In this document: one piece after another, positions 8,194 to 55,832 of the stretch
Layout of the letters: each line of letters opens with the position of its first letter
Numbering within the stretch: the stretch's first letter is position 1
Source of the DNA: a virus
Taxonomy: Duplodnaviria; Caudoviricetes
IMG/VR virus record: IMGVR_UViG_3300049182_000044
Span: 1 to 64,000 of that record
DNA length: 64,000 nucleotides
Reading direction: 5' to 3' (one strand)
Made by a program: the position numbers and the translations under genes
The notes under the pieces: generated by a model
Databases searched by the model: none
What the model was told of the DNA's origin: nothing
The model's input: only the letters and a program-made list of their open reading frames with translations

Positions 8194-8501
8194 CACACTT
8201 CCTCCACTCTGAGAACAACCCGCTCGATTGCAGAACCATTGCGCACACAATGCCCTTTAAGCTCGAACTTGTCACCGATTTTACGCTGCATCATCAGTCG
8301 CTGGAACGTTGCTGCTACAAGTTGATCCTTATCCAGAACCTTTTTGTCTTGTACCGATGCAACGTTGTCCAGCTCTTTGAGAATGTCGCTCTTGAAAATG
8401 ATTCGCTCGCGGAAGCTAGCGTTCATCCCGCTTTTGAAGCGATCACTGATCTTGTAGGCTGTATCAAACAGCACTTCATCCGCGTCGAATTTACTGTCCA
8501 T
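8193..8501 (-). CDS. Hypothetical protein
   Basis: 102-aa ORF coupled on both sides. Confidence 0.65.
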   Translation of the reverse strand: MDSKFDADEVLFDTAYKISDRFKSGMNASFRERIIFKSDILKELDNVASVQDKKVLDKDQLVAATFQRLMMQRKIGDKFELKGHCVRNGSAIERVVLRVEEV

Positions 8502-9295
8502 TATGTGACCTCGACTGTTTGACAGGCTTCAGCTGGAGGAGTCTTGTCGTAGTCCTTCGATTTAGCTAGGACTGCCAGCATCTCATACTCCATAGCACGC
8601 AGACGCTGCAACTCAACCAGCTCACTGGTGATGAAACGCTTGCGTTCGTACATGGCTTGAATTACATGCGCTTCCCATGCTGCATCGAATAGCGCGTGAT
8701 GCTTGACATAGTACGCAGGACTCTTGGACGTCGCTTCACCTACCTCAGCGAACTCCCGTGCGGTACGAACATCGCGCTCGTCACGGAAGTAAATGTCCAG
8801 CTCAAGACCCATGTGATCGAAGGCATCACGAAGGATTGCGCAGTCGAATGTAGGAGCATTAGCCCAGACACGGCGTGGCTTCACCACCTTCAACCAAGCT
8901 GCGAGACGCGCAAACGTGTCGATCAACTTCTCACGATGACCGGCCGCTACCTCGAGCATGTTGTAGGACTGCTTCTCCCACCACTTGATCGTTTCAGGAT
9001 CATGCGTGAAGCCGTGACGCAACGTCTGATACAGCGACACCGGCGTGTAGAACAAGCCGACACTGTTTGGATTGGACAAGTCTTGGAACGTTTCGATAGG
9101 CATACGCCCATCTTTCAGGAACGCCCCTTGCTCTTCCGAGATAATGTCTTCTTGAGAAAGAAGAACAGTTGGATTGAAAGAGACAGCGCCGATACTCATG
9201 ATACCAGCCATCTTCTTCTTTGATCCAACCAAATCCAGGGTTTCGAGATCGAGGGATACTTCGGGTTGAATGCTCACTTCATTTTCCTTTCGCAC
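8501..9295 (-). CDS. DEDDh 3'-5' exonuclease (ExoVIII/Rv2179c-like)
   Basis: LDLET, WANAPTFD, RDVRT, HHALFDA. Confidence 0.85.
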   Translation of the reverse strand: MRKENEVSIQPEVSLDLETLDLVGSKKKMAGIMSIGAVSFNPTVLLSQEDIISEEQGAFLKDGRMPIETFQDLSNPNSVGLFYTPVSLYQTLRHGFTHDPETIKWWEKQSYNMLEVAAGHREKLIDTFARLAAWLKVVKPRRVWANAPTFDCAILRDAFDHMGLELDIYFRDERDVRTAREFAEVGEATSKSPAYYVKHHALFDAAWEAHVIQAMYERKRFITSELVELQRLRAMEYEMLAVLAKSKDYDKTPPAEACQTVEVT

Positions 9296-9939: not shown

Positions 9940-11799
9940 TCAATCCTCGTCGTCGTTATCCGACGGCTTGGACTCTTCTTCCTCTTCAGCGCCACCTGCT
10001 TTCTTGGTAGCGAAGAACTTGTCTACGCCGCTACCCTTCTGCAGATCGTTGAAGCACCACTCGCGCAGATTGAACGGCTTGATTCCGAGATACTCGAAAA
10101 TCTTCTTCTGCTGTTCTTTCGATCCGACGATCAGCATCTTGAACTCGAGCCACGAAATTGCCTTCTTAGCTTCTTTGCCTTTGATAATGAGCTTGATCGA
10201 ATTGCGCTTGCCTGCACACTGGCCGGTATCAGCCAGGTAACGCCACGTATCCCACACGGGGTCGAAACCGCGTGCTTTGCCGTCACCGTCTTCGATCCAC
10301 AAACGCAGCCAGCCTTCCAGATTAGGAACGCTCAGCTTGTTCTTGTGGGCACGAACATGGATCATGCGATACTTGTCAACGCCACCGGACTTGCCTACCG
10401 ACTTCTCTTCGACGATCATGCCTTTGTCGGTCACACCAGGCGCCGAGTTCAGAACACGAGGCTGCATACGCAGACGAACATCGGAGTAGAACTTCGGTGC
10501 TTCACCGCACGGCTCGTATTCAGGATTACCATAAGTAACCATCGGAGCCTTACGCAGCTGATTCACCGCGACGATACAGATACGCTTCGCACGAAGCTTA
10601 CCCTTGATGCGCTTGATCTGTTCGGAGAACATACGCGCTTGCATCGCCATTGCCGAACCCGGATCATCAACGTCCTGCTTTTCAGGAAGCATAGCTGGCA
10701 ACGAATCGAGAATCACCAGAGCCTGCAAGTTGCCGTCCTTTGCGGGGACGCGATACTTGCCAGTCTTCTTGAAGTAGTTCTTGTCGAACTTGTCACCAAC
10801 GATCTTGACGTTGTTCTTGTTGACCTTGCCGTCCGGTTGATAGTGGTCGTACACATAGTACCACTGTTCGCCCATGAGGATCTTGTCCGGCAGTGTACGT
10901 TCCAGCTTCGCAACGTAATCGAAGAACTTCTCTGCAACGCCTTCAGCGTAGTAACGAACACGAGGAGGCACCGCCCACTTCGACGTCTTGGGATCACGAA
11001 CACCGAACACTTGCTCGATCGGCATCTTGATGCCATTGGTGCGCATGATGTTCTCAATGTACTCGGGCGAGGACGAGCCTTCGTAGTCCCAGTACGAAAT
11101 GACAGGAACTTCCGTGAGGAGAGCTGCCGTCATGAACGTCGATGCACCAGTCGATTTACACGACTGTTCACCACCGAAGAACGTGTACCAGCCTGGTACA
11201 AGACCGCTACCGAGAATCAGGTCGAGCTGCAAGTTACCCGTGCTGAGACGATCTTCAACTTGACCGAGCGATGTACCCGACAACTGGTAATCTTTCTCGA
11301 TGCCATCAAGTTCATCGTCGATGTGAGCCATAGGATTGAAGAACTCGATCTCAGAGCCAACGTCATCGTCGCCCTTCTTGCCCTTCTTTTTCTTGCCCTT
11401 CGGCTCGTCGTCTGCATCGTCATCGTCATCGGAGGATTCTTCATCCTTCGCCTTCTTGGACTTCTTGCCCTTCTTCGGCTCGTCATCCGCGTCTTTGGAC
11501 TTCTTGCCCTTTTTCTTCTTGGGCTCTTCATCCTCATCCTTGGATTTCTTCGACTTCTTTTCCTTCTTGGGCTTCTCGTCGTCCTTCGACTTCTTACCCT
11601 TCTTCGGTTCGTCGTCCTTTTCCTTCTTGGACTTCTTCACCTTCTTGGGTTCGTCATCGTCCTTCGACTTCTTGCTGCGCTTGGACTCTTTCTCGGTCTC
11701 AGCTTTCTTACCGCGCTTCGACTTCTTTTCCTCCGCTGCTTCGGACTTTTTACCCTTCTTCTTGGTATCAGCCTTCTCAGCTTTATCTTTGCGTGCCAT
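9940..11799 (-). CDS. recA: RecA/UvsX-like recombinase with a ~145-aa K/D/E-rich N-terminal extension
   Basis: LSTGNLQLDLILG, Walker A variant GGEQSCKST, Walker B VILDS, VNQLR, GEAPKFYSDVRL, KNK. Start moved to ATG 11799 (GGAG RBS). Confidence 0.88.
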   Translation of the reverse strand: MARKDKAEKADTKKKGKKSEAAEEKKSKRGKKAETEKESKRSKKSKDDDEPKKVKKSKKEKDDEPKKGKKSKDDEKPKKEKKSKKSKDEDEEPKKKKGKKSKDADDEPKKGKKSKKAKDEESSDDDDDADDEPKGKKKKGKKGDDDVGSEIEFFNPMAHIDDELDGIEKDYQLSGTSLGQVEDRLSTGNLQLDLILGSGLVPGWYTFFGGEQSCKSTGASTFMTAALLTEVPVISYWDYEGSSSPEYIENIMRTNGIKMPIEQVFGVRDPKTSKWAVPPRVRYYAEGVAEKFFDYVAKLERTLPDKILMGEQWYYVYDHYQPDGKVNKNNVKIVGDKFDKNYFKKTGKYRVPAKDGNLQALVILDSLPAMLPEKQDVDDPGSAMAMQARMFSEQIKRIKGKLRAKRICIVAVNQLRKAPMVTYGNPEYEPCGEAPKFYSDVRLRMQPRVLNSAPGVTDKGMIVEEKSVGKSGGVDKYRMIHVRAHKNKLSVPNLEGWLRLWIEDGDGKARGFDPVWDTWRYLADTGQCAGKRNSIKLIIKGKEAKKAISWLEFKMLIVGSKEQQKKIFEYLGIKPFNLREWCFNDLQKGSGVDKFFATKKAGGAEEEEESKPSDNDDED

Positions 11800-11881
11800 A
11801 CGTTTCTCCACATGCAATACGAAAATAGGGGAAAGGACTTTTACATCCAATCCCCTATGCGTTACTTCAAGGCGTCAACGA

Positions 11882-13405
11882 TTAGAACGGAACATCGTCG
11901 TCATCGTCATCGTCTTTCTTCTTTTTCTTCTTGTCGCCCTTACCGGACTTCTTGTCAGCCTTCTTGTCCGACTTCTTGTCCGACTTCTTGGATTCCTTTT
12001 CCTTGCCCTTTTTCTTCTTGGGCTCGTCATCCTCGTCATCGTCATCGTCATCGTCGTCATCGTCCGAGTCCTCGTCGTCCTCGTCTTCATCCTTCGACTT
12101 CTTGCCTTTGCCTTTGACTTCTACTTTGCCCTTGCCCTTTTTCTTGGGCTCGTCATCGTCATCGTCATCATCGTCGTCCGAGTCATCATCCTCGTCATCA
12201 TCCGAATCGTCCGAATCATCATCGTCTTCATCGTCATCATCAGAGTCGTCGTCATCCTCGTCATCGTCATCCTTCGAGGATTTCTTGCCGGCCTTCTTGT
12301 CCTTGCCTTTGCCTTTGGACTTCGGTTCGTCGTCTTCATCGTCGTCGTCCGAGTCATCATCCTCGTCATCGTCCGAGTCATCATCCTCGTCATCGTCCGA
12401 GTCATCCTTGGACTTCTTGCCTTTGCCCTTGGCCGGCTTAGCATCTTTCTTGCCTTTGCCCTTTGCCTTCGGCTCGTCTTCATCGTCGTCCTCGTCCTCG
12501 TCCGAATCATCGTCATCATCAGAATCATCGTCATCATCGTCGTCCGACGGCTTGCCCTTCTTGCCCTTGCCTTTGGGCTCTTCCTTCTTGCCCTTCTTTT
12601 TCTTCTTGCCGAGATCTTCATCATCATCATCATCATCGTCGTCATCGTCTCCGTCACCAGAGTCGAGGTCTTCCTGACCAACGATATGCATACGCTTCAG
12701 TTCAGCCTTTGCGTCTGCTTCAGTTTCGCGACCCAACTGATCGAGCAGTGCTTCGCTCAGTTCCCAGACCAGGTATGCCTTCTCTTCGTCTGTCAACGCC
12801 GACTTGTCACCGAGGTTGACTTGGTACTGCTCAGGGCCCTTCGCGTCCGGATCGTGCTTGACGTTGATGTCCACGCCGTACTTCTCATGCGAGACAGGGA
12901 ACGTCTTCGTGCCGTCCTTGGTCTTGTGCTTGTTCAGCTCTTTGAGGCCCTGGATCTTCGCCATCAACGAACTGGTGATACGCAGGACACGAACCGGAGT
13001 CCACGAATCGCTACCCATCTCTTTGTGGCCACTTTCCTTCTCACCCTTAGAAGGCTTGCCTTTCTTGGCCGGCGCGTCTTCCTGAGCAGCGCGCGAAATG
13101 ACGTTAGCCAGGTAGAACACTTCACCCTTGCCGCCCGACTCGAGATCGTCGTATGGGCACTTGACGCCCTTCTTCGCGCCTTCGGTTTCCGGATCGAACG
13201 ATACGCAAATCTTCGGGATCTTGATTTCGCGCTTGTCCTTGCCGGCGATGATGTTGATCCAGTGGCGCTTGACTGCGAGCATGTCAAGATCAAGAACGCG
13301 GATGGTAGTCCACTTGTTCTTGGGCAGCTTGATCATCTCGAGCAAGTCTTCCAGGCGTTGCGACTCACGACCAACGCGCGGTTTGGCATCTGCTAATTTA
13401 ACCAT
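11882..13405 (-). CDS. ssb: Single-stranded DNA-binding protein (gp32-like) with a ~260-aa mixed-charge tail ending DDDDDDVPF
   Basis: N-domain IRVL..RHW..C..CP; adjacent to recA; acidic C-terminus resembling the bacterial SSB-Ct DDDIPF. Confidence 0.75.
   Translation of the reverse strand: MVKLADAKPRVGRESQRLEDLLEMIKLPKNKWTTIRVLDLDMLAVKRHWINIIAGKDKREIKIPKICVSFDPETEGAKKGVKCPYDDLESGGKGEVFYLANVISRAAQEDAPAKKGKPSKGEKESGHKEMGSDSWTPVRVLRITSSLMAKIQGLKELNKHKTKDGTKTFPVSHEKYGVDINVKHDPDAKGPEQYQVNLGDKSALTDEEKAYLVWELSEALLDQLGRETEADAKAELKRMHIVGQEDLDSGDGDDDDDDDDDDEDLGKKKKKGKKEEPKGKGKKGKPSDDDDDDDSDDDDDSDEDEDDDEDEPKAKGKGKKDAKPAKGKGKKSKDDSDDDEDDDSDDDEDDDSDDDDEDDEPKSKGKGKDKKAGKKSSKDDDDEDDDDSDDDDEDDDDSDDSDDDEDDDSDDDDDDDDDEPKKKGKGKVEVKGKGKKSKDEDEDDEDSDDDDDDDDDDEDDEPKKKKGKEKESKKSDKKSDKKADKKSGKGDKKKKKKDDDDDDDVPF
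12347..12406. repeat. 24-bp tandem repeat inside ssb (2.5 copies; another copy at 12176-12199)
   Basis: GTCCGAGTCATCATCCTCGTCATC repeated, encoding D/E/S octapeptides. Confidence 0.85.
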
Positions 13406-13483: not shown

Positions 13484-13588
13484 CTATTGCAAGTAAGCGA
13501 TAATGCCTAGGACGATTCCGATAATGCAGAAGCCCAGGACTATCCATGGGAAGGGGTCAGGAGGTTCGTAATCGTTATGCGATCTCAT
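13484..13588 (-). CDS. 34-aa single-pass membrane peptide, absent from the ORF track
   Basis: MRSHNDYEPPDPFPWIVLGFCIIGIVLGIIAYLQ; fills the gap between neighbours. Confidence 0.55.
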   Translation of the reverse strand: MRSHNDYEPPDPFPWIVLGFCIIGIVLGIIAYLQ

Positions 13589-13757
13589 ACGTCCACTGGC
13601 CAATGCCCATTGCATTCACAAACTTGCGCTGGACTTGACGCAGCCACACCAGGTGGTACGTATGCCCTTGCGGACCTTTCTTGACGGCTACGACCGGATG
13701 CCACGCAAACCACTTGTGTGCATTGACTCGATCAGCTTTGAGTTGGATGCTTGCCAT
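13575..13757 (-). CDS. Hypothetical protein
   Basis: 60-aa ORF with a GAGG RBS; WFAWHPV motif. Confidence 0.6.
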   Translation of the reverse strand: MASIQLKADRVNAHKWFAWHPVVAVKKGPQGHTYHLVWLRQVQRKFVNAMGIGQWTYEIA

Positions 13758-14892
13758 TTTTCTTCAACCTCTTTTTCGGCTTGACTGCCGGAGTTTTTAA
13801 TAACTGCTGCTCCCTCATGGTCTTACGCATAAGACGCAGCTCCTTCTTTGAAAACACTTCGTCAATATCGAGATACAGACGAGCTAAACTACGAATGTCG
13901 GCACACTTAGCAAGATACCGGACAACCTCCATCTCTTGGCGTTGCTCCAGCTTTACCTCTGCACCCACATCACCAACAATGTAATCCTGAAGTGACGTTG
14001 CACCGTCTTCACCACTATCAGAACTAACAAGCTTGTCCAGACTGACACTAAAGTTCACGTCTCCACTTGAGTTCGTACCTTGTGCCATCTGCTTACGCTG
14101 CATTTGCGGAATGGAATAGGCGATACCGTATTCGTGGCCATGATCCGTATTGGAACACGTCTGAGCGTTCAGTACCCAGTAATTGATGTACGATGTAAGA
14201 GCACCTTTCGTGCAATCGTACTTGTCAACGGCCTTGGTAATCGCAGTCAGGAAGTTATGATACACATCCTTGAAGTCGAAGTTTTCACCCTTCATCTTGC
14301 AGAAGGCCTTCGCTTGTTTGTACGCCAGCTTCACATAGTTGCTGACGATAGAATTTCGGAACTCGTAAGCAAGCTCCAGGTAGTCTTGCGCGATGTTGAT
14401 TGTGGAGAACAACCGACTGCGCGAGTTACCTACGTTCTGCTCCAACGCCCTGAGCTTCATATCGAGCATGATACGTTCATGCCCAGTTGCAAGTAAGTAG
14501 CGTTGATAAAGCTCTGCGTAGCCTTCAGTCTCTTTCAAGAACTTGACTACGAAGTTGTAGACGAAACCACGCTCGATCTTTGAGTTGGTCAGGATGTGAA
14601 TCTTCTTGTCCCGATCATCTGTAATCAAACAGTGGCACAGTGAGGTCATGAACTCCTCACGCGGAAGCGCTGAGAGCTTCCGTTTGCGATTTCTCGCTGT
14701 CAGACCGAGTAAGTACACGATCTGAACATCAAACACGTCGCTAGTCTTTACCAGCGGTGCCAGAGATTCGTAGATAAGGAAGTCCAACACTTCCTGAATC
14801 TGTCCCCCTGTTAAATTGCTGGTCAAGTCCGCGTTCGTCGCCTTCGCTAGCTCTTCCGCTAGTGCTGGCTCTTTTGTTTTGCGGGCTTTCAT
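13732..14892 (-). CDS. Phage-encoded sigma70-family RNA polymerase sigma factor
   Basis: YVKLAYKQAK..KDVYHNFLTAITKAVDKYDCTKGALTSYINYWV matches region 2. VSLDKLV..DGATSLQDYI matches region 3. No clear region 4. Confidence 0.75.
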   Translation of the reverse strand: MKARKTKEPALAEELAKATNADLTSNLTGGQIQEVLDFLIYESLAPLVKTSDVFDVQIVYLLGLTARNRKRKLSALPREEFMTSLCHCLITDDRDKKIHILTNSKIERGFVYNFVVKFLKETEGYAELYQRYLLATGHERIMLDMKLRALEQNVGNSRSRLFSTINIAQDYLELAYEFRNSIVSNYVKLAYKQAKAFCKMKGENFDFKDVYHNFLTAITKAVDKYDCTKGALTSYINYWVLNAQTCSNTDHGHEYGIAYSIPQMQRKQMAQGTNSSGDVNFSVSLDKLVSSDSGEDGATSLQDYIVGDVGAEVKLEQRQEMEVVRYLAKCADIRSLARLYLDIDEVFSKKELRLMRKTMREQQLLKTPAVKPKKRLKKNGKHPTQS

Positions 14893-22227: not shown

Positions 22228-23886
22228 TTACTTCTTTCCTTTCTTCAGTTTGACCTTCTTTTTACCTTTGACCTTCACAGCCTTCGTCGAATCAATCGAG
22301 ACCTCTTCGTCTTTGATGACCTTCTTGGCTTTCTTTCCGGCCTTCTTATCCTTTACAGCAGCCTTCTTGTCTTGAGCTTCGACCTTCTTCGGCTTCTTTG
22401 GTTTGCCGTCGCCGCCGTTGTTCAGGTCTTGCACGACGCTCTCCATCGCTGATATACGAGCCAGCACACGCTTCTTCTTTTCGTCGAATGTCTGCAATTC
22501 ATTGCCTGCGTTGTCATCACCCGTAGTGGTCTCACCCGTAACAGGGAACAGCGAGTTGGTCAGCGTGATCGGCTTCTCAGAAGTGATCTCCAGGATATTG
22601 CGGTAACGCTTACGCGCCACTTCAATGCCCTTCTCAGTCGCAACGTCGATGAAGTCCATCGCTTGTTTGACAGACTGCAGCTTCGGATGGCTCTTCAACT
22701 GTGTGTACACCAGCTCGTTGTATTCCTTGCTGGTCAACGAATCGGCTGCCTCTTGCAACTGCTTCGAGTAACGCGTCATTTCGATTGCGTTGTGGATCGA
22801 CAGTAGTTCCAGCGTGAAACGATTAGCACCAAAAGCCAGAATGTCAGTGTACTTCAATGCCTTGCAAACCTCGCACTGACATGGCAGCAGCTTCTGAGTA
22901 TTCGGGATTGATCCACGTGAGCCGATCGGGATACGCTTCGATGTGTGATACAGGTCGAACTGGAAGTGGTATGCCTTGTTCGACGCCGACTGAATGTGCG
23001 ACGTAGAGTCAGACGTGATGTGTGGCTTCCAAGTGGAATTGGCGAGCTTCACCAGAACCGGAATGTGCAGCGAACCGAAAACACCCAGCATGTGATATTG
23101 CTTGTATTTCTGTCCGGTGTTCACCAAGTCCCAGATGATGTCCACACCGCCTAACAAACCTTGGCGGTACAAACCACCGACCGCGCAACGAGGCAGACGC
23201 TTGTCTTCAACGATCTTACGATACGCACGACGTTGATTGATATTGTGACCGTGAAAGATGTTCAGCAGCTCCACACCCTTCGCACGCTCGAGCATGATCT
23301 CGGTCGAAGCCTTCTGAAGCTTCGCCGCACGATCAATGATCTCGTCATTAGCGACCGAAAGCGGAAGATCGAGTACCATGCCGGCGTCTGCATTCTGATT
23401 GTAGAACTCAACCAGATCTGCAGGGCTAATGGCTCCGATCATGTCACGCGCCATCTGAAGTCCACCGGAGTCGGACAAAACATTGATACGTTGATCATCG
23501 GGAATGCGGGAAGGAGTACGGGGATTGACCGTGCCCTTCGAGTGCGCGAAGTTCGTCATGATGTATTCGATACCTAGACGCTTGCACACTGAATCGTTGA
23601 ACAGGTTGAAGTCGTAGAACTCGTCAAAGGATTCGCCGTATGGATAGAATGCATCCATCATATCGTTATTGCGAACGATCACGATCTCACGATCAGGACA
23701 AACGAACCAGATATGCGTACTCGTTTGTTCCTTGATCGTGATCTTGTGCGGGTCACCACCTTTGTACTTGATGTAGACTGCGAGACCGCCGAAGCTGCGA
23801 AACAGCGCTGCAGCTGCGACGAATGAGTACCCATGATCCGGGCACGGAGGAGAAGTGTATTTTGTTTTGGTAGATTTGTCGGACAT
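22228..23886 (-). CDS. dpdA: tRNA-guanine-transglycosylase-fold base-exchange enzyme, probable DNA-acting DpdA, with Lys-rich tail
   Basis: SDSGGLQ, MVLD, VGGL, HMLG, SDSTS and Zn site CQCEVC..HN. DNA versus tRNA substrate is inferred from context. Confidence 0.75.
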   Translation of the reverse strand: MSDKSTKTKYTSPPCPDHGYSFVAAAALFRSFGGLAVYIKYKGGDPHKITIKEQTSTHIWFVCPDREIVIVRNNDMMDAFYPYGESFDEFYDFNLFNDSVCKRLGIEYIMTNFAHSKGTVNPRTPSRIPDDQRINVLSDSGGLQMARDMIGAISPADLVEFYNQNADAGMVLDLPLSVANDEIIDRAAKLQKASTEIMLERAKGVELLNIFHGHNINQRRAYRKIVEDKRLPRCAVGGLYRQGLLGGVDIIWDLVNTGQKYKQYHMLGVFGSLHIPVLVKLANSTWKPHITSDSTSHIQSASNKAYHFQFDLYHTSKRIPIGSRGSIPNTQKLLPCQCEVCKALKYTDILAFGANRFTLELLSIHNAIEMTRYSKQLQEAADSLTSKEYNELVYTQLKSHPKLQSVKQAMDFIDVATEKGIEVARKRYRNILEITSEKPITLTNSLFPVTGETTTGDDNAGNELQTFDEKKKRVLARISAMESVVQDLNNGGDGKPKKPKKVEAQDKKAAVKDKKAGKKAKKVIKDEEVSIDSTKAVKVKGKKKVKLKKGKK

Positions 23887-32036: not shown

Positions 32037-32942
32037 ATGGCAATCCAACGCCGCCTGAAGAACGTGGCTGACACGTCCATCGCAAAGAAACGCAAGAAGA
32101 AAAAGACCGACGCCAAGTCGATCGCCGCTCGCAAGAAGGCAAAAGCTTACCGCATGAAGAACAAGGGCAAGCTGAAGGTCGCGCGCAAGAAGCGCGAGAT
32201 GAAGAAGACGGCCGCTGAAAAAGCGTTCGAGAAGAAGCACAAGGAAATCGTTGCCGAGAAGCTGCACGGCAAGAAGAAGAAGGCCAAGAAGGCAGGCAAG
32301 GTCGCCGCTGGTGATGCCAAGGGCGCACGCGCCAAGGCAAAGGAAGAGCGTCTGAAGGCCAAGGCAGCGAAGAAGGCCGCTGCTGAAGCCAAGAAGAAGG
32401 CAGCCGCTGCCAAGAAGGAACTCGCCAAGGCTCACAAGGCTGCGAAGAAGTCCCTGGTCACCAAGCACAAGCAAGCGCTGAAGAAGCTCGTCGGCGATCA
32501 CAAGAAGAAGTTGTCCTCGCTCGGCGGCAAGGCCAAGACGGCGAAGAAGTCGGTTGCCAAGAAGGCCAAGGTCGTTGTGAAAGCAGCGAAGAAGACCGCT
32601 AAGGTCGCTGTCAAGAAGGCGAAGAAAGTAGCCAAGAAGGCAGCAGCCGCTCCGGCAGCTAAGGCACCGAAGGCCAAGAAGGCGAAGAAGGCAAAAGCAG
32701 CTAAGGCTGCTAAGCCGGCAGCCAAGAAGGCCAAGGCACCGAAGGCCAAGAAGGCAGCTAAGGTAGCAAAGGCACCGAAGGCTAAGAAGGCCAAAGTCGC
32801 CAAGGCACCGAAGGCCAACAAGGTCCCGAAGGCAGCCAAGAAGGCAGCTAAGAAAGTCGCTTCCAAGACCACGACCAAGAAGGTCGGTCTGAAGAAGAAG
32901 ACCGCAAAGCCGCTCGCTAAGAAGGCACGTCCGCATCTGTAA
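32037..32942 (+). CDS. Histone H1-like Lys/Ala-rich DNA-binding protein 1
   Basis: Almost entirely K/A/P repeats (KAPKAKK, AAKKA); AAGGAG RBS. Confidence 0.8.
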   Translation: MAIQRRLKNVADTSIAKKRKKKKTDAKSIAARKKAKAYRMKNKGKLKVARKKREMKKTAAEKAFEKKHKEIVAEKLHGKKKKAKKAGKVAAGDAKGARAKAKEERLKAKAAKKAAAEAKKKAAAAKKELAKAHKAAKKSLVTKHKQALKKLVGDHKKKLSSLGGKAKTAKKSVAKKAKVVVKAAKKTAKVAVKKAKKVAKKAAAAPAAKAPKAKKAKKAKAAKAAKPAAKKAKAPKAKKAAKVAKAPKAKKAKVAKAPKANKVPKAAKKAAKKVASKTTTKKVGLKKKTAKPLAKKARPHL

Positions 32943-32977
32943 TCTCAGGTCGGAAAGCTGAATAAGCGATCTTAATG

Positions 32978-33020
32978 AAATGGGCCCAAATGTTTAATCG
33001 CATTTCGGGCCCATTTTTGT
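32978..33020 (+). terminator. Hairpin terminator between the H1-like genes
   Basis: AAATGGGCCC / GGGCCCATTT plus T-run. Confidence 0.7.
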
Positions 33021-33043
33021 ATCTACACTCAATCGAGGCAAAC

Positions 33044-34006
33044 ATGGCAACGAAGAAAACCGCAGCAAAGAAACCCGCTGCAAAGAAGAAAGCTGCGGCG
33101 AAGAAGCCAGCAGCCAAGAAAACCACTGTGAAGAAAGTGGCGAAGAAGACCACAGCCAAGAAGACTGCGGCGAAGAAACCGGCAGTGAAGAAGGCCAAGC
33201 CTGCTGCAAAGAAAGCTGCACCGGCTAAGAAGAAGCGCAAGCTGAAGGGCGTTAACGATCTGAGCATCGTCAAACAACGTGCCAAGGGCAAGAAGAAAGG
33301 CGCAGCTGCAGTCAAAGCTCGTCTGAAGAACAAGCAATACCGCCTGAAGAACAAGGCGAAGATCAAGCAGAAAGCCAAGGTCCGCAAGGCCAAGATGACG
33401 GCGGCGGAAAAGGCTTTCAACAAGAAGCACAAGGAAGTCATCAAGAAGCATCACGCCAAGACCAAGGGCAAGATCGCTAAGCTGAAAGAAAACCACACCG
33501 CCAAGATCGCGAAGCTGAAAGCCAAGAAGCAGACGCCGAACGTCAAGGCAAAGATCCAGGCTACGAAGGCCAAGCACACCGAGAAGGTCACGGCGCTGAA
33601 GCAGGCTCACGAGAAGAAGAAAGAATCGCTCCTTTCCAAACTCGGCGGCCTGGCTAAGAAGGCTGTGAAGACCGGAACAAAGGCGGTCAAGAAGGCCCTG
33701 AACATGGGCAAGAAGACCAAGAAGGTCAAGATCGACAAAGGCTTCAAGAACGTCACTCCGAAACAAGGCGCTAAGGCGAACAAGGCTCGTAAGGCCAAGC
33801 TTGGCGCGAAGAAAGTTCCGACCGTGAAGAAACGTTCTGCAAAAGAACTTGAGTCGTTCGAGGGATCGCCGCGCAAGAAGTCCAAGATCTCAAAGATCGT
33901 TCCGAGCAAAAAGGGCTCTAAGAAGGTCACGAAGGTAGTCAAGAAAGCAGCGAAGAAAGTCTCGCTGAAGAAGGCTAAGAAGCCGGCCAAGAAGTCCAAG
34001 AAGTAA
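33044..34006 (+). CDS. Histone H1-like Lys/Ala-rich DNA-binding protein 2
   Basis: Starts MATKKTAAKKPAAKK (GAGG RBS); shares the core YRxKNKxKxK..TAAEKAFxKKHKE with protein 1. Confidence 0.8.
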   Translation: MATKKTAAKKPAAKKKAAAKKPAAKKTTVKKVAKKTTAKKTAAKKPAVKKAKPAAKKAAPAKKKRKLKGVNDLSIVKQRAKGKKKGAAAVKARLKNKQYRLKNKAKIKQKAKVRKAKMTAAEKAFNKKHKEVIKKHHAKTKGKIAKLKENHTAKIAKLKAKKQTPNVKAKIQATKAKHTEKVTALKQAHEKKKESLLSKLGGLAKKAVKTGTKAVKKALNMGKKTKKVKIDKGFKNVTPKQGAKANKARKAKLGAKKVPTVKKRSAKELESFEGSPRKKSKISKIVPSKKGSKKVTKVVKKAAKKVSLKKAKKPAKKSKK

Positions 34007-50057: not shown

Positions 50058-53000
50058 ATGAACAACAGTTCCATTCATGAGGCAAGTGCTCTCGGCAATG
50101 CACTCGAGGGCGGTGAAGGCATGACTCCTCTGGAGCGTGCTCAGACTTCACTCTCGAACACTTCGTTCGAGGCGTTGTTGCCTATTCAGCTCGATCCGGA
50201 TTCACAAGTTGCAAAGGACTACGACCAGGTATTCTACCCGCGTCGTAAGCCGCTGAAAGGTGCGTTCACCAATCGCGGTATGTATCCTGAACTGGCGAAA
50301 TACCTCGCCGAAGTCAGCGGCTATCTCAATGCGGTGTTCAGCCAAGCTCGTTACCTGCTCAGTGAAGCACCTCTGCTGGCTACGATGCCGAAAGATGCGA
50401 CGATGGCGATGACCACTCGCCACCTCGATACGGTCATCAAACGCATCGACAAAGACAACATCAACATCGCGCAAAAGGCGTTCATCGAATCCGTTAGCAG
50501 CGGTAAGGCTCACATCATCAAGCCGTCCAACCGTTACAAGAACGGCTTCGATGTGATCTACAGTGGCTTGCCGACGTTTGGTGGTGCGAAGGGTACCGCG
50601 ATCTCTCTGCAGCCCGGTGCCGGTGGCATCAATCACGCTTTGCCGGAAAGCACTCGTGACGCAGGCTGGCGTGGTATGCGTGAAGAAGGCGGCTCGTTGA
50701 CACTCGAAATAGGCAAGCGTTCGCTCACTATGTGCCGCGAACTCATTACCGACCTCTTCGAGGACGCAAACATCGGTACGCTGGCCACCGCGCACAATCG
50801 TCACACGAAGATCCTCCCGCTTGACTTTGACTTCCGTAAGGTTGTTGGTGATGCGGTTGATGCAATGAAGGGCCTTGGCGTTGACATGCGCCCTCTCGCA
50901 GACATCCCGAAGGTGGACCCGCTGCTGTTCAAAGGTCTCGGTAAGTACTTCTCTATCGTAGCCATCTACGAAGCCAACCACAACATCGTTCGCAAGCGTT
51001 TGATCGACGAAACCCAAACGCCTGAGAACTACAACATGAACGAGGACTTCCTCGCGATGCAGCCGAACATCGGCTTCTCTATCGTGATGCACCTCCCGCA
51101 GGAAATCGTTTCGTTCATCACCCAGACGAAGCCGAGTGATCGCGTTCCTCTCGCAGCACTCAATACCTGGGTGTCTGCATGGTCGCGCGCTCTGTTGAAG
51201 ATTCCGAAAGCGAAGGCCAAGAAGGGCGAGCGTGTTACCGTTATGGGCAGCCCGCGATATGTCCTGCCTGCATCGACAACAACTGCACTGATCGAGCGTC
51301 GTAAGCAGCTGGGCTTCTTCACTGAGGAAGGTCGTACTAACGAAGACAACCTCTATGTGTCGAATGTCGGTACGTTGAACTTCTGCCCGAAGTCGTCTGA
51401 TCTGGCGATGGAGAACGCTCGCAATTACGAGCGCCTGCTGGAGGAAGCACTTCAGTTGTCTTTCGACGCGGGTACTCCGCTCAATGCTTCTCAGATGGGT
51501 GAAACGAATCCGGTATTCGGCCTCGTGCATCCTGAATATCGTGAGAAGATTGCAGGCTTGAAGTCGCAACTCAAGCGTTACGCCGGTGCTGTGCAGACCT
51601 ACAGCTGGGATTACAACTGCATTCTGACCAGTGCTATGAGTGACCCGGACAAGCTGATCGCTACCAATCTGGCCGGTGCTGCAAAGCCTGATGAACTGTC
51701 CGTCGCAGATTACCTGCGTAAGCCGTTCGCACAGTCTATGATGCTTCTGTTCCCCGACTCGAAGGCAGACGTAGTTGACGAATCGGATCCGATGAAGAAG
51801 GTCACTGCTGACGGCAAGACCGAAAGCAAGACCAAGCCGGCTACGATGGCCACTTACGGTCACGGCGGTTCTGCCACTCCGATGCTGCGTACCTCGGTGT
51901 TTCAGAACGCGAAGAAGCTGTACACCTACCTGCTTCAAGACAAAGCTGTACCTTCATTTCAAGAGCTGGTCGATAAAGCTGCTCAAGACCTAAACGTCAA
52001 GAACTTGGAGACAGACGAGCACGTAGCACCGTATGAGAAGAATCTTTTCAACGGCCTGCTCACAGCGGATCTGAAGGTGTCTCCTGTACTTAATCCGGCA
52101 ACGTCCTCTCCTCAGCGTCAAGTTGACGCGATCTGGACGATGCTGGAACGAGCTATTCGTGACTCTTCCGGCTTTCCTGGCTCGAATCTGGCGCGGCATT
52201 GTTATGCAACTGGTGAGAACATCGACGAGAACGATCACTTCTTCAACCCGGAGCATTTCACACTGGCCGAGTTCAAGAACGTCTACAAGTATTTCGGTGG
52301 GCGTATTTTCTACCATGCGATGCAGGCACTGGCGCATGCTGATCGCAAGAAGCTGATGGTGATCAACCTCGAAAACCCGCAGCCGCAAGTGAACTTCACT
52401 GCACTCGTGAACGAGGTAATACCGCTTGCTGTCATGCTCAGCAAGTACGTCCCGCAGTCGGAACAGATCTACACGAAGGCAGACGAACTGGCAGAGAAGA
52501 ACAAGCGCAACACTTCGATCACGGCTGATGACATCCATGTGCCGGGCTCGAAAGGTCCGAATGCTCAAACAGGCGATCCGGGCTTCCAATTGTTCCCGCA
52601 CCAGATCGAAAGTCACCAATACCTGCGTAATGCTCCTCGCTTCGCTGTGCTGGACATTGCACCGGGCGGTGGTAAGACCATTGCAGTTCTGTCTGATATT
52701 GCGAACTTGGTTCGTGATAAGAAGTGCACGAAGCCGTTGATCGCATGCCCGAATGGCCTGGTACGTAACTGGGTTGAGGACATGCACAAGATCACCCAGG
52801 GCAAGTGGAATATCATCCCGATCACCACTTCAATCTATCGTACCTGGGGTGACGAGCGTCTGACCAAGATGATTCACAATGCACCGCGAAACACTATCGT
52901 GGTCGTCGGCTTGTCAGTTCTCAAGCTGCAGAAGTATCCGGTCGTTATCGGCAATCACGTTGAAGTCGTCTCCGGTACGCTGGAGTTCATCAAGAAGTTC

Positions 53001-55832
53001 GGCTTCGACTACGTTGCACTGGACGAATCGCATCGCGTTAAGAACCCGAAGACTGCTGTCCACAAAGCTGTTAAGCAATTGTGTACCGCATCGTCGGTCA
53101 AGTACATTCGTTTGGCCACTGGTACGCTGATCTCGAACAAGCTGACAGACGTAGTTGGTCAGGCAGCGATGTTCTCGTCGCAGATTTTCCGTACACCGGA
53201 AGAGTACGAAGCAGCGAACAGCGAACAGATCGGCGACACTAAGGTGTGGACGTGGAAGAAAGAGACGCCGCGTCTTGCGCGTGAACAGTTGTCGCGCCAC
53301 TCAGCAGTCATTACGTTCAAGCGTAAAGAGTGGGCATTCATGCTCCCAGTACCGAAAGAGAAGTTCATCGCGGTTGCCCTTAGCAAGTCTGAGAAGGAAG
53401 GCGGCGATGCTCACCAGCTGATGTACGATGCAATTCTCAAGCAGACCCTCGAGGAGTTGAAGAAGGACGAGGACGTCATGAAGTTGCTGAAAGGCGATGA
53501 TGACGACGAGAATGGTGACGACGACGAGAACGGTGACGAAGACAACGGGCCGTTGATGCCTGAAGACCTCGATGATGCCACGATGGCTGAACTTGAAATG
53601 TCGCTGCGCCCGTACTTGCAGCGTCTAGAGATGATGCTTGTCGATCCGTTGGGCGACCCGTTCGGTGAAGTGTACTTCAAGGGCATGAAGCGCGGTGACT
53701 TTGTCTCCAATAAGGTGCTGAGGGTTATCGAGCGTATCAAGCTCAACTTCATTGACTTCCATTGGGAGAAGGGCAAGGTATACAGCAAGAAGGGTGTTGA
53801 CGAACAAGGCAACGACCTCGACCTGTGTGACTTCAATGGCAAGCGTTATGCGTTGATGCCGCCACCCAATGTCAATCCTCTGGATCGTGAAGCGTACTAT
53901 GCACCGTACAAGTCGATCATTGAGCCGGACAAGGATCCACGTTGGAAGGAAGAGCCTCGTGGTAAGGTCATTGTGTTCTGCCGCTACACCCGTTCGGTGA
54001 ATGCGATCTTCCATGCACTTGAGCAGTTGAGTCCTACACTCGCTAAGATGGCAGTACGCTTCCACGGCGAGATCAAGGACAAGTGGGCCAACCTCGATGC
54101 GTTCAAGTCTACGCCTATCAGCAAGAACAAAGGCGTACAGATCCTGATCGCAAACGAGCAAGCTATCTCTGAAGGCCACAACCTGCAGATGGCATCCCGC
54201 TTGATTCGTGTTGAATCGCCCTGGGCACCAGGTGAGCTCGATCAGTCGTCTGCTCGTATCTTCCGTCCTGATCCGACTGGGGCATTCACACGCGAAAACG
54301 TGTACCTTGATTGGGTGATGGCGAACGGTTCGATGGAAGTCGCTAAGATGGGTCGTTTGATCTCGAAGATGCTGACGAAAGCTCAGTTCGACGAGGCCGG
54401 CAATCCACTGTACGAAGCTCTCAACGAGTATCAGTTGGCACCGATTTCGATGTCGCTGGAGACAATCGCATCGACGCCGCTGCTGTCTGATATTGAGGAG
54501 TACACCAGCGCATACGGCGACCTCGCAAGTATCATGAGTTCAGAGTTCCGTGAGATGCGTGCTACGCGTCCTGCGAAGATGTTCTCTATCGAGCCGGAGC
54601 CGATGCTGGAAGATGCGAAGATCATCGACTACGTACCGTATGTCCCGAACATGCGTGTGCCGGATCGTAACAACTTCGGTCTGATTGCATTGCCTGAGTT
54701 CTTGCAAGACACGGAGAACGAAGAAGCAGTCGAGATCCTTAGCGACCCGAAGAAGTTGATCGGTATGTATGCACATACTGAAATGGGTAATGGTACGATC
54801 ACGAATGTAACGTTCCGTACCAGCAAGGATAATCCGAATGCCCCGAAGCGTATCATTCGTGTTGAGGTAACGCTTGCAGGCAGCGAAGAGAAGTACGAAG
54901 GTGACCCGTCAATGATTCACATGGCGACAAACCTGACCGCTGAAACAATCAAGAACTTCCAAGTCAAAGCCAAGGTCGCGACGAAGAAGGACAAGGAACG
55001 TGCTGAGAAGTTGCGCAAGAAGGCAGCATTGAAGGCGGAAAAGGAAGCAAAAAAGATCGCACGGCAGAAGAAGCGTGAGAAGGAATCGCTTAAGAAGCTG
55101 AAGGAGATCGAGAAGCTGAAGGACAAGAAGGGCAAGGTGTCGGCACCTAAAAAACCAAAGGTTGAAGAGCCTGAGGAAGACGAGGATGATGATGTTGAAG
55201 ATAACACCAGCGTCGAGCTTTACCCGGTTGTGTACAACGGCTTCCTCGCACTCGAAGCGATTCCTGAAGACGAAGACCTGAATCTGAAGAAGTATGGGTT
55301 TAAGCCTTTCGGCGATTATGCGTACATTGGTATCAAGGACTATGTGACGTTCGATGCGGTAATGAAAGCGCTCACGAAGAAATTCAAGATCGCCAAACCC
55401 GTGTTGAAGCGCTTGGAGTTGCTGCACGATTCGTTCCAGACGGGTCGTGGCCGCAAGTTCGACGTTGCACAAGCACCGATCAGCGAGTTCAAGAACTTCT
55501 ACCGACTGAGCCACACAATGGCTAAGAAGGATGAAGAGACTGGTAAGGTCGAACTCAAGATCTATCCGGTCATCATGAACGGCCAGTTGATGCTGACAGT
55601 AGACTTGGCGACCAACCCGATTGTTCGCAAACTCCTGAACAAGACGATTCCGAAGTCCAAGTCCAAGTTCCAATTGGCGCATGGACTCGATGTGCAGTTC
55701 TTTAAGTCCAAGGCTGAAATGAAAACCGTCTTCAAGAAGATGGTGGCCGGCGGCATCGAGATCACGAATCGTAAAGAGTACGAGAAGGAGTTCGAGGCTC
55801 TCAAGCTGAAGCAGGACAAGGTCAAGAAGTAA
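50058..55832 (+). CDS. Giant SNF2/SWI2-family helicase-like ATPase (DarB-like)
   Basis: Walker A APGGGKT, LDESH, ATGT, HG.I, SEGHNLQ, PWAPGELDQSSARIFR. Confidence 0.85.
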   Translation: MNNSSIHEASALGNALEGGEGMTPLERAQTSLSNTSFEALLPIQLDPDSQVAKDYDQVFYPRRKPLKGAFTNRGMYPELAKYLAEVSGYLNAVFSQARYLLSEAPLLATMPKDATMAMTTRHLDTVIKRIDKDNINIAQKAFIESVSSGKAHIIKPSNRYKNGFDVIYSGLPTFGGAKGTAISLQPGAGGINHALPESTRDAGWRGMREEGGSLTLEIGKRSLTMCRELITDLFEDANIGTLATAHNRHTKILPLDFDFRKVVGDAVDAMKGLGVDMRPLADIPKVDPLLFKGLGKYFSIVAIYEANHNIVRKRLIDETQTPENYNMNEDFLAMQPNIGFSIVMHLPQEIVSFITQTKPSDRVPLAALNTWVSAWSRALLKIPKAKAKKGERVTVMGSPRYVLPASTTTALIERRKQLGFFTEEGRTNEDNLYVSNVGTLNFCPKSSDLAMENARNYERLLEEALQLSFDAGTPLNASQMGETNPVFGLVHPEYREKIAGLKSQLKRYAGAVQTYSWDYNCILTSAMSDPDKLIATNLAGAAKPDELSVADYLRKPFAQSMMLLFPDSKADVVDESDPMKKVTADGKTESKTKPATMATYGHGGSATPMLRTSVFQNAKKLYTYLLQDKAVPSFQELVDKAAQDLNVKNLETDEHVAPYEKNLFNGLLTADLKVSPVLNPATSSPQRQVDAIWTMLERAIRDSSGFPGSNLARHCYATGENIDENDHFFNPEHFTLAEFKNVYKYFGGRIFYHAMQALAHADRKKLMVINLENPQPQVNFTALVNEVIPLAVMLSKYVPQSEQIYTKADELAEKNKRNTSITADDIHVPGSKGPNAQTGDPGFQLFPHQIESHQYLRNAPRFAVLDIAPGGGKTIAVLSDIANLVRDKKCTKPLIACPNGLVRNWVEDMHKITQGKWNIIPITTSIYRTWGDERLTKMIHNAPRNTIVVVGLSVLKLQKYPVVIGNHVEVVSGTLEFIKKFGFDYVALDESHRVKNPKTAVHKAVKQLCTASSVKYIRLATGTLISNKLTDVVGQAAMFSSQIFRTPEEYEAANSEQIGDTKVWTWKKETPRLAREQLSRHSAVITFKRKEWAFMLPVPKEKFIAVALSKSEKEGGDAHQLMYDAILKQTLEELKKDEDVMKLLKGDDDDENGDDDENGDEDNGPLMPEDLDDATMAELEMSLRPYLQRLEMMLVDPLGDPFGEVYFKGMKRGDFVSNKVLRVIERIKLNFIDFHWEKGKVYSKKGVDEQGNDLDLCDFNGKRYALMPPPNVNPLDREAYYAPYKSIIEPDKDPRWKEEPRGKVIVFCRYTRSVNAIFHALEQLSPTLAKMAVRFHGEIKDKWANLDAFKSTPISKNKGVQILIANEQAISEGHNLQMASRLIRVESPWAPGELDQSSARIFRPDPTGAFTRENVYLDWVMANGSMEVAKMGRLISKMLTKAQFDEAGNPLYEALNEYQLAPISMSLETIASTPLLSDIEEYTSAYGDLASIMSSEFREMRATRPAKMFSIEPEPMLEDAKIIDYVPYVPNMRVPDRNNFGLIALPEFLQDTENEEAVEILSDPKKLIGMYAHTEMGNGTITNVTFRTSKDNPNAPKRIIRVEVTLAGSEEKYEGDPSMIHMATNLTAETIKNFQVKAKVATKKDKERAEKLRKKAALKAEKEAKKIARQKKREKESLKKLKEIEKLKDKKGKVSAPKKPKVEEPEEDEDDDVEDNTSVELYPVVYNGFLALEAIPEDEDLNLKKYGFKPFGDYAYIGIKDYVTFDAVMKALTKKFKIAKPVLKRLELLHDSFQTGRGRKFDVAQAPISEFKNFYRLSHTMAKKDEETGKVELKIYPVIMNGQLMLTVDLATNPIVRKLLNKTIPKSKSKFQLAHGLDVQFFKSKAEMKTVFKKMVAGGIEITNRKEYEKEFEALKLKQDKVKK

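Follow-up and report, generated by a model that had tools for sequence, protein, structure and literature searches.

Two adjacent genes encode an SSB and a recombinase with charge-patterned disordered regions

We analyzed two adjacent genes in a 64,000-nucleotide stretch of viral DNA (positions 1 to 64,000 of IMG/VR virus record IMGVR_UViG_3300049182_000044), referred to here as the window, which covers the initial 64 kb of one 281,566-bp jumbo phage contig. On the minus strand of the window, a sigma-factor gene is followed by a small open reading frame (ORF) at 13575-13757, by a 507-amino-acid (aa) ORF at 11882-13405 that encodes a single-stranded DNA (ssDNA)-binding protein (SSB), and by a 636-aa ORF at 9940-11850 that encodes a RecA/UvsX-like recombinase (Table 1). 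Both proteins carry long, highly charged regions, a C-terminal tail in the case of the SSB and an N-terminal extension, or arm, in the case of the recombinase, and a short acid-Pro-Lys unit is common to the two.

The SSB matches phrog_15004, a family annotated as single strand DNA binding protein (E 4e-88). This was its sole match, since no Pfam family was found at E <= 1 and neither the gp32 model nor PF00436 matched. AlphaFold2 modelled the core (residues 1-243) with a predicted local distance difference test (pLDDT) score of 89.8, and the top six Foldseek matches of the core were all RB69 or T4 gp32 chains (best E 4e-6, probability 1.00, template modeling score ~0.5). The core is predicted to have the gp32 fold, that is, an oligonucleotide/oligosaccharide-binding (OB) fold with inserted subdomains; with this gp32-like fold and no Pfam match, the protein does not belong to the bacterial type with a homotetrameric PF00436 OB domain. 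As regards a possible zinc-binding His/Cys cluster of the gp32 type, C83-P84 varies hardly at all among relatives, the majority of which read CPYC at this point. The window's SSB has CPYD, so that one Cys is missing.

The remaining 264 aa of the SSB contain 139 D/E, 63 K/R, 21 S and 21 G residues. They are laid out as five long D/E/S tracts and a short acidic tip, alternating with K/G blocks, and a Pro marks each acid-to-base junction. The charged fraction of this tail is 0.77, with a net charge of -76 (-0.29 per residue), and its kappa of 0.58, compared to a mean of 0.17 for shuffled sequences (z 15.7), was reached by none of 500 shuffles. The tip follows the bacterial SSB scheme of an acidic stretch, a hydrophobic residue, Pro and Phe. 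Among 68 relatives (described below), 11 tails close with an acidic run and then [IV]PF, and 23 more with an acidic run plus W or F; in an alignment, 14 family members have the [IV]PF ending. The gp32-type acidic C-terminal domain, through which partner proteins dock, is present in the window's SSB, much expanded and broken up by lysine blocks into a long disordered block polyampholyte with an SSB-type acidic-aromatic tip.

The recombinase matches the Pfam RecA family (PF00154; 66.1 bits, cut-off 27) and the UvsX-like recombinases of phrog_97 (E 7e-45). We placed its start at ATG 11799, which gives a product of 619 aa, and rejected the upstream TTG 11850, because a GGAG Shine-Dalgarno sequence lies upstream of the ATG and homologues begin with MAR. 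The K and T of its Walker A motif, GGEQSCKST, are invariant in the recombinase alignment, and the protein ends in the acidic tip SDNDDED; an acidic tip, with at least 4 D/E in the last 8 residues, is found in 104 of the 119 recombinase homologues scanned. Judged by its sequence, this neighbor of the SSB gene encodes an otherwise ordinary RecA/UvsX-type ATPase. Many homologous recombinases (850-1070 aa; for example, P0058, P0069 and P0073) carry intein or homing-endonuclease domains (PF14528, PF03161, PF14890) inserted into the core, and the window's copy is free of them.

What sets the protein apart is its first 144 aa, which have a charged fraction of 0.72 and a kappa of 0.30 compared to 0.13 for shuffles (z 4.9), so that the arm, like the SSB tail, combines a high charged fraction with strongly segregated charges. 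A preliminary description of this DNA had reported an SSB C terminus of ~260 aa with alternating acid/Ser and K/G blocks and ~145 N-terminal aa of DDEPKK-type units on the adjacent recombinase, and our analysis bears out both observations. It had also supposed that the extension stands where the N-terminal helix of the recombinase would be, and here we arrive at a different result. The alignment of E. coli RecA to the recombinase begins at the STG-L-LD motif, with ~40 core residues preceding it, and AlphaFold2 placed a helix at core residues 18-28 (~11290-11322; pLDDT of the core, 83.6). The helix region itself has a low pLDDT, as expected for a monomer, and its IEKDY resembles the IEKQF of RecA. 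Because the RecA alignment leaves these ~40 residues and a helix is modelled there, the extension stands in front of an otherwise normal recombinase and does not replace the helix, which is retained behind it.

Table 1. Features of the SSB/recombinase locus (positions in the window)
Feature	Position	Strand	Basis
Phage sigma-factor gene (upstream context)	13732..14892	-	phrog_17569, E 3e-98
SSB core, residues 1-243, predicted T4/RB69 gp32-type fold	12677..13405	-	phrog_15004, AlphaFold2, Foldseek
SSB C-terminal block-polyampholyte tail, residues 244-507	11885..12676	-	Translation; kappa; conserved architecture in 68 non-redundant relatives
SSB tip DDDDDDDVPF, similar to DDDIPF, the C-terminal peptide of bacterial SSB	11885..11914	-	Translation
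Intergenic SSB/recombinase spacer, with GGAG ribosome-binding site before ATG 11799	11800..11881	-	Direct sequence reading
Recombinase N-terminal extension, 144 aa, net +20, six DDEPKK(G)KK(SK)-type units	11368..11799	-	Translation, motif scan, kappa
RecA/UvsX-like recombinase core	9943..11367	-	Pfam RecA, phrog_97, E. coli RecA alignment, AlphaFold2
Exonuclease-like gene (downstream context)	8501..9295	-	phrog_255 exonuclease, E 3e-33

A strict form of the acid-Pro-Lys unit is confined to the two regions

We scanned translations of all six reading frames of the genome for a strict form of the unit, [DE][DE][DE]?[EK]PK[KGAS], and found it 10 times, four times in the SSB and six times in the recombinase, always within the two charged regions. 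A looser motif gave 39 matches in the genome, 11 of which fall in the two disordered regions and one more in the SSB core. The regions have the acid-Pro-Lys junction in common, not the whole repeat, as the repeat period is ~43-47 aa in the SSB, with its long acid tracts, compared to ~12-18 aa in the recombinase extension. Tandem repeats at the DNA level are present in both. Recent exchange of DNA between the two regions is not supported, since their best shared stretches are 29 nucleotides long at 83-86% identity, which is what would be expected from one short peptide written in one codon usage.

Charge patterning is conserved among relatives and matched within genomes

We collected 80 IMG/VR loci around recombinase homologues, found via the recombinase alignment, and four more contigs, which together yielded 68 non-redundant PaBG/Lu11-like genomes. 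In each of the 68, the SSB gene is the immediate upstream neighbor of the recombinase gene, and the SSB tail is strongly blocky (median kappa, 0.61; minimum z, 6.2) at lengths of 72-277 aa. A recombinase extension of at least 25 aa is present in 50 of the 68 genomes and is net basic in every one of these 50. Arm length ranges from 0 to 148 aa, the longest arms being those of L083 (148 aa) and of the window. A similar picture emerged from the 114 closest metagenomic recombinases with an aligning N terminus (119 homologues were scanned in all): their median arm is 78 aa, those of at least 25 aa are net positive without exception (96/96), and 33 arms have at least three acid-Pro-basic units, such as EEKPARRSRK. 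In L083, the closest relative, whose recombinase core is 88% identical to that of the window, the units of the arm have been rewritten and the pattern is preserved, which points to selection on pattern and not on sequence.

It seems very unlikely to us that the regions arose as neutral low-complexity expansions and lack any specific role, or that the poly-acid tracts serve as DNA mimics against host nucleases or defense systems. Lengths do vary widely for both tails and arms, and assemblies often break inside the repeats, in line with such a reading. The charge pattern, the junction Pro and the tip are nevertheless kept across 68 diverged genomes despite sequence turnover, which argues for selection, and the context around the genes is not defense related. 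The assembly breaks were seen in two close relatives (L084 and L085, both Logan contigs), where they fall inside the SSB tail; the low-complexity repeat fragments short-read assemblies, and full-length genes are probably under-represented as a result.

Tails and arms also resemble each other within genomes. Across the 22 genomes with recombinase arms of at least 40 aa, cognate pairs of SSB tail and arm share more 4-mers than non-cognate pairs do (0.070 versus 0.043; permutation test, p 4e-4), with the window's own pair scoring highest (0.281). Moreover, tail and arm are correlated in their Arg fraction and in their Pro and Val content (rho 0.57-0.66), and these correlations are not accompanied by a positive one with GC content.

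Other lysine-rich proteins and neighboring genes

Several further proteins of this phage are rich in lysine. Two adjacent, extremely basic Ala/Lys-rich proteins of 301 and 343 aa (window positions 32037-32942 and 32975-34006, both on the plus strand) contain histone-H1-like AKKA and KKPAA repeats and have no PHROG match; the region from 32037 to 34006 shows the strongest AT skew of the window (0.525). Two PC4-like (PF02229) ssDNA-binding proteins, encoded on the minus strand at genome positions 235378-235824 and 280313-280738, have C-terminal acid-Pro-Lys tails, for example, DDDGTPKKVKK and DEDEDEPKPKKKK, which resemble the units of the SSB and recombinase. The large subunit of topoisomerase II (genome 223896-226097, minus strand) has an acid-Pro-Lys or Lys-rich C terminus, and a 1924-aa helicase (phrog_21391; window 50058-55832, plus strand) contains an internal stretch rich in Lys and Glu around residue 1650, with an acid block after it. 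The only tRNA genes of the genome are three lysine tRNAs (anticodons CTT, TTT and TTT), located outside the window at genome positions 79748-80187 and adjoining the transfer-messenger RNA (tmRNA) gene. This set fits the large need for lysine of the many Lys-rich proteins, whose lysines are mostly encoded by AAG.

A second peptide, [IV]-x-DEEV[DS][VI][DS] with lysine runs on both sides, is common to three unrelated proteins encoded on the minus strand, namely, a 552-aa protein in the deazaguanine gene cluster (window 22228-23886), the topoisomerase II large subunit and a peptidase-like protein (genome 271327-272430). This lysine-flanked peptide may be a docking motif. A similar sequence, GDVEIDVS, is present in the recombinase arm of PaBG, and we considered whether recombinase arms in general share a K-rich/DEEVDVS/K-rich peptide; with matches in only 6 of 50 relatives, we rejected this. 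Downstream of the recombinase lies the exonuclease-like gene (Table 1), and in relatives PF16473 (Rv2179c-like) was called on the gene at the matching position.

Comparison with known systems

By SSB core, PaBG (47% identity) and Lu11 (44%) are the closest cultured phages, followed by jumbo phages of Erwinia, Dickeya, Burkholderia, Rhizobium and Xanthomonas; a megablast search of phage records with the SSB/recombinase region gave no match. The annotated SSB and recombinase of PaBG (gp117/gp116) and of Lu11 (gp176/gp177) are orthologues of the window's pair, and comparison of the annotated regions showed the order sigma factor, SSB, recombinase to be kept in both phages. Their SSB tails contain DDEPKKGKK- or DDKPKKKKK-type units, as in the window, but are shorter (147-164 aa versus 264 aa) and near neutral.

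With gp32 and UvsX of T4 and RB69, the window's pair has in common a gp32-type SSB core, an acidic C-terminal docking region and a RecA-family partner with an acidic disordered C terminus. The differences lie in the charged regions: the A domain of T4 gp32 is ~50 aa long and purely acidic, whereas the window's SSB tail alternates acid and lysine blocks over 264 aa, and T4 UvsX lacks the basic N-terminal arm of the window's recombinase. The Pfam gp32 model, moreover, does not match the window's SSB. For the UvsY mediator, a search of the genome with PF11056 gave no match, but as the control genomes were equally silent, this result does not speak for the absence of a mediator. UvsX is among the proteins that dock on the gp32 A domain. 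Docking of partners by this domain has been shown for Dda (PMC11551737). Both gp32 and UvsX form condensates on their own in vitro in buffer containing polyethylene glycol (PEG), and when mixed they give multiphase droplets (PMC11951158).

E. coli SSB resembles the window's protein in its general plan, in which a long disordered linker joins a folded DNA-binding domain to an acidic-aromatic tip (DDDIPF in E. coli, DDDVPF at the end of the window's SSB). Its fold, however, is of the PF00436 and not of the gp32 type, and its linker is rich in Gly, Gln and Pro, whereas that of the window's SSB is a charge-block polyampholyte; many relatives of the latter, unlike E. coli SSB, have W-DDDDE or basic residues at the C terminus. 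Cooperative binding by E. coli SSB is driven by its linker and tip, as is its phase separation, and weak SSB partners become enriched in the resulting droplets (PMC7584906). Long disordered regions in which acid tracts are segregated from lysine blocks are otherwise known from eukaryotic nucleolar and chromosomal charge-block proteins of the Ki-67, NPM1 and nucleolin type, and condensation of nucleolar proteins is controlled by charge blockiness (PMC9106583). These proteins are not homologous to those of the window and are regulated by phosphorylation, whereas here the pattern sits on bacteriophage proteins of DNA transactions.

Our literature search found no paper describing the SSB tail or the recombinase extension; the PaBG genome paper mentions neither protein, and a comparative survey of jumbo phages does not mention their tails. 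What is new here is a matched, clade-wide basic arm on the recombinase that adjoins the SSB, the within-genome matching of arm and tail, and the occurrence of the strict unit in this gene pair alone.

Possible coupling of the recombinase to SSB-coated DNA

We infer that the two disordered regions touch, providing multivalent electrostatic coupling of the recombinase to SSB-coated ssDNA, and we regard this as the best supported of the readings, albeit one somewhat short of probable. It would amount to an enlarged form of an arrangement already known from gp32 and E. coli SSB. In its favor are the predicted folds, the charge segregation, the restriction of the strict unit to the two genes, the gene linkage and conserved patterning in relatives, the within-genome matching, and the precedents of partner docking on the gp32 A domain (PMC11551737) and partner enrichment in SSB droplets (PMC7584906). 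With SSB coating the ssDNA, the lysine blocks of the recombinase arm would bind the long acid tracts of the tails, in contacts that would be multivalent and salt sensitive, and lysine blocks of neighboring SSB tails would bind the acid tracts in the same way. Such contacts would raise the local concentration of recombinase on SSB-covered ssDNA and might thereby help the hand-over from SSB to recombinase filament in recombination-dependent replication. At high density, they could yield condensate-like foci. A structure prediction that paired the recombinase core with the 40 C-terminal residues of the SSB gave a score of 0.00; it was made without control runs and counts neither for nor against binding.

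Several observations weigh against this coupling. The preliminary description had named conservation of charge patterning in related phages as a check, and the outcome is divided: the SSB tails are blocky throughout, but most recombinase extensions are basic and not blocky (median z, 1.0), and the matched, blocky arm is confined to the subclade of the window. The recombinase arms of PaBG and Lu11 are ~35-44 aa long and basic, and lack the acid-Pro-Lys repeats of the window's arm. The within-genome matching of tail and arm is suggestive only, as shared ancestry was not corrected for. Finally, slippage-prone GA-rich codons could have shaped both regions in place of selection for matching, and a lysine-rich arm could simply bind DNA.

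The last two points lead to an alternative in which each region works independently and in cis. The SSB tail would then be autoregulatory, folding back on its own DNA-binding groove and on neighboring SSBs and tuning affinity and cooperativity on ssDNA as do the gp32 A domain and the tail of T7 gp2.5, while the recombinase arm would be an accessory tail that binds DNA in the manner of histone H1 or SPKK tails and the likeness of the units a product of composition and repeat slippage. There is precedent for the first part in gp32, gp2.5 and E. coli SSB, whose acidic tails compete with DNA for binding to the OB fold (PMC10359462, PMC7584906); DNA-level tandem repeats in both regions, lysine-rich tails on many unrelated proteins of the genome and KRGRP-like AT-hook strings in the arms of some relatives also agree with the alternative. 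We nonetheless consider this alternative rather unlikely, because it leaves unexplained why the strict unit is confined to two adjacent genes, why cognate pairs match better than non-cognate ones, and why acid residues are retained inside a DNA-binding arm.

Electrostatic coupling must also be set against the model of the preliminary description, in which the matched regions drive, or partition into, a phase-separated, shell-less replication-recombination compartment that also gathers other phage DNA enzymes. The background invoked for it, that charge blocks drive condensation in the nucleolus and that bacterial SSB condenses via its linker, is sound (PMC9106583, PMC7584906), and together with the T4 droplets (PMC11951158) it supplies precedents. 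Kappa and charged fraction of the SSB tail are very high family-wide, the two PC4-like proteins and the topoisomerase II large subunit bear similar acid-Pro-Lys or Lys-rich tails, and the two very basic Ala/Lys-rich proteins could act as polycations. Such partners would in fact be needed, since the strong net acidity of the SSB tail disfavors self-coacervation unless its charge is neutralized by polycationic partners. Droplets of T4 gp32 and UvsX required PEG in vitro (PMC11951158), most relatives lack the blocky recombinase arm, and direct electrostatic recruitment or plain DNA binding accounts for the same data. A compartment of this kind, though plausible, appears unlikely. Its broadest version is more speculative still, and we hold it to be quite unlikely: PaBG/Lu11-like jumbo phages would use a charge code in which the SSB tail is the scaffold of a shell-less electrostatic replication-recombination condensate, the recombinase, the two PC4-like proteins, topoisomerase II and the histone-H1-like proteins are its clients through net-basic arms or tails, and the three lysine tRNAs of the phage support production of these lysine-rich proteins.

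Should the SSB tail and the recombinase arm indeed pair, the finding could guide the design of recombinase/SSB pairs for isothermal amplification, where condensates of T4 UvsX and gp32 already affect performance (PMC11951158). Cultured relatives exist in PaBG, which infects P. aeruginosa PAO1, and Lu11, which infects P. putida. Such pairing would also offer, in a bacterial virus, a model for charge-block physics that has so far been studied mostly in eukaryotic nucleoli. For the phages themselves, it would mean that the two neighboring genes encode a natural, genetically linked pair of scaffold and client, and that a patterned charge code, in place of a folded mediator such as UvsY, would direct the recombinase to SSB-coated ssDNA.

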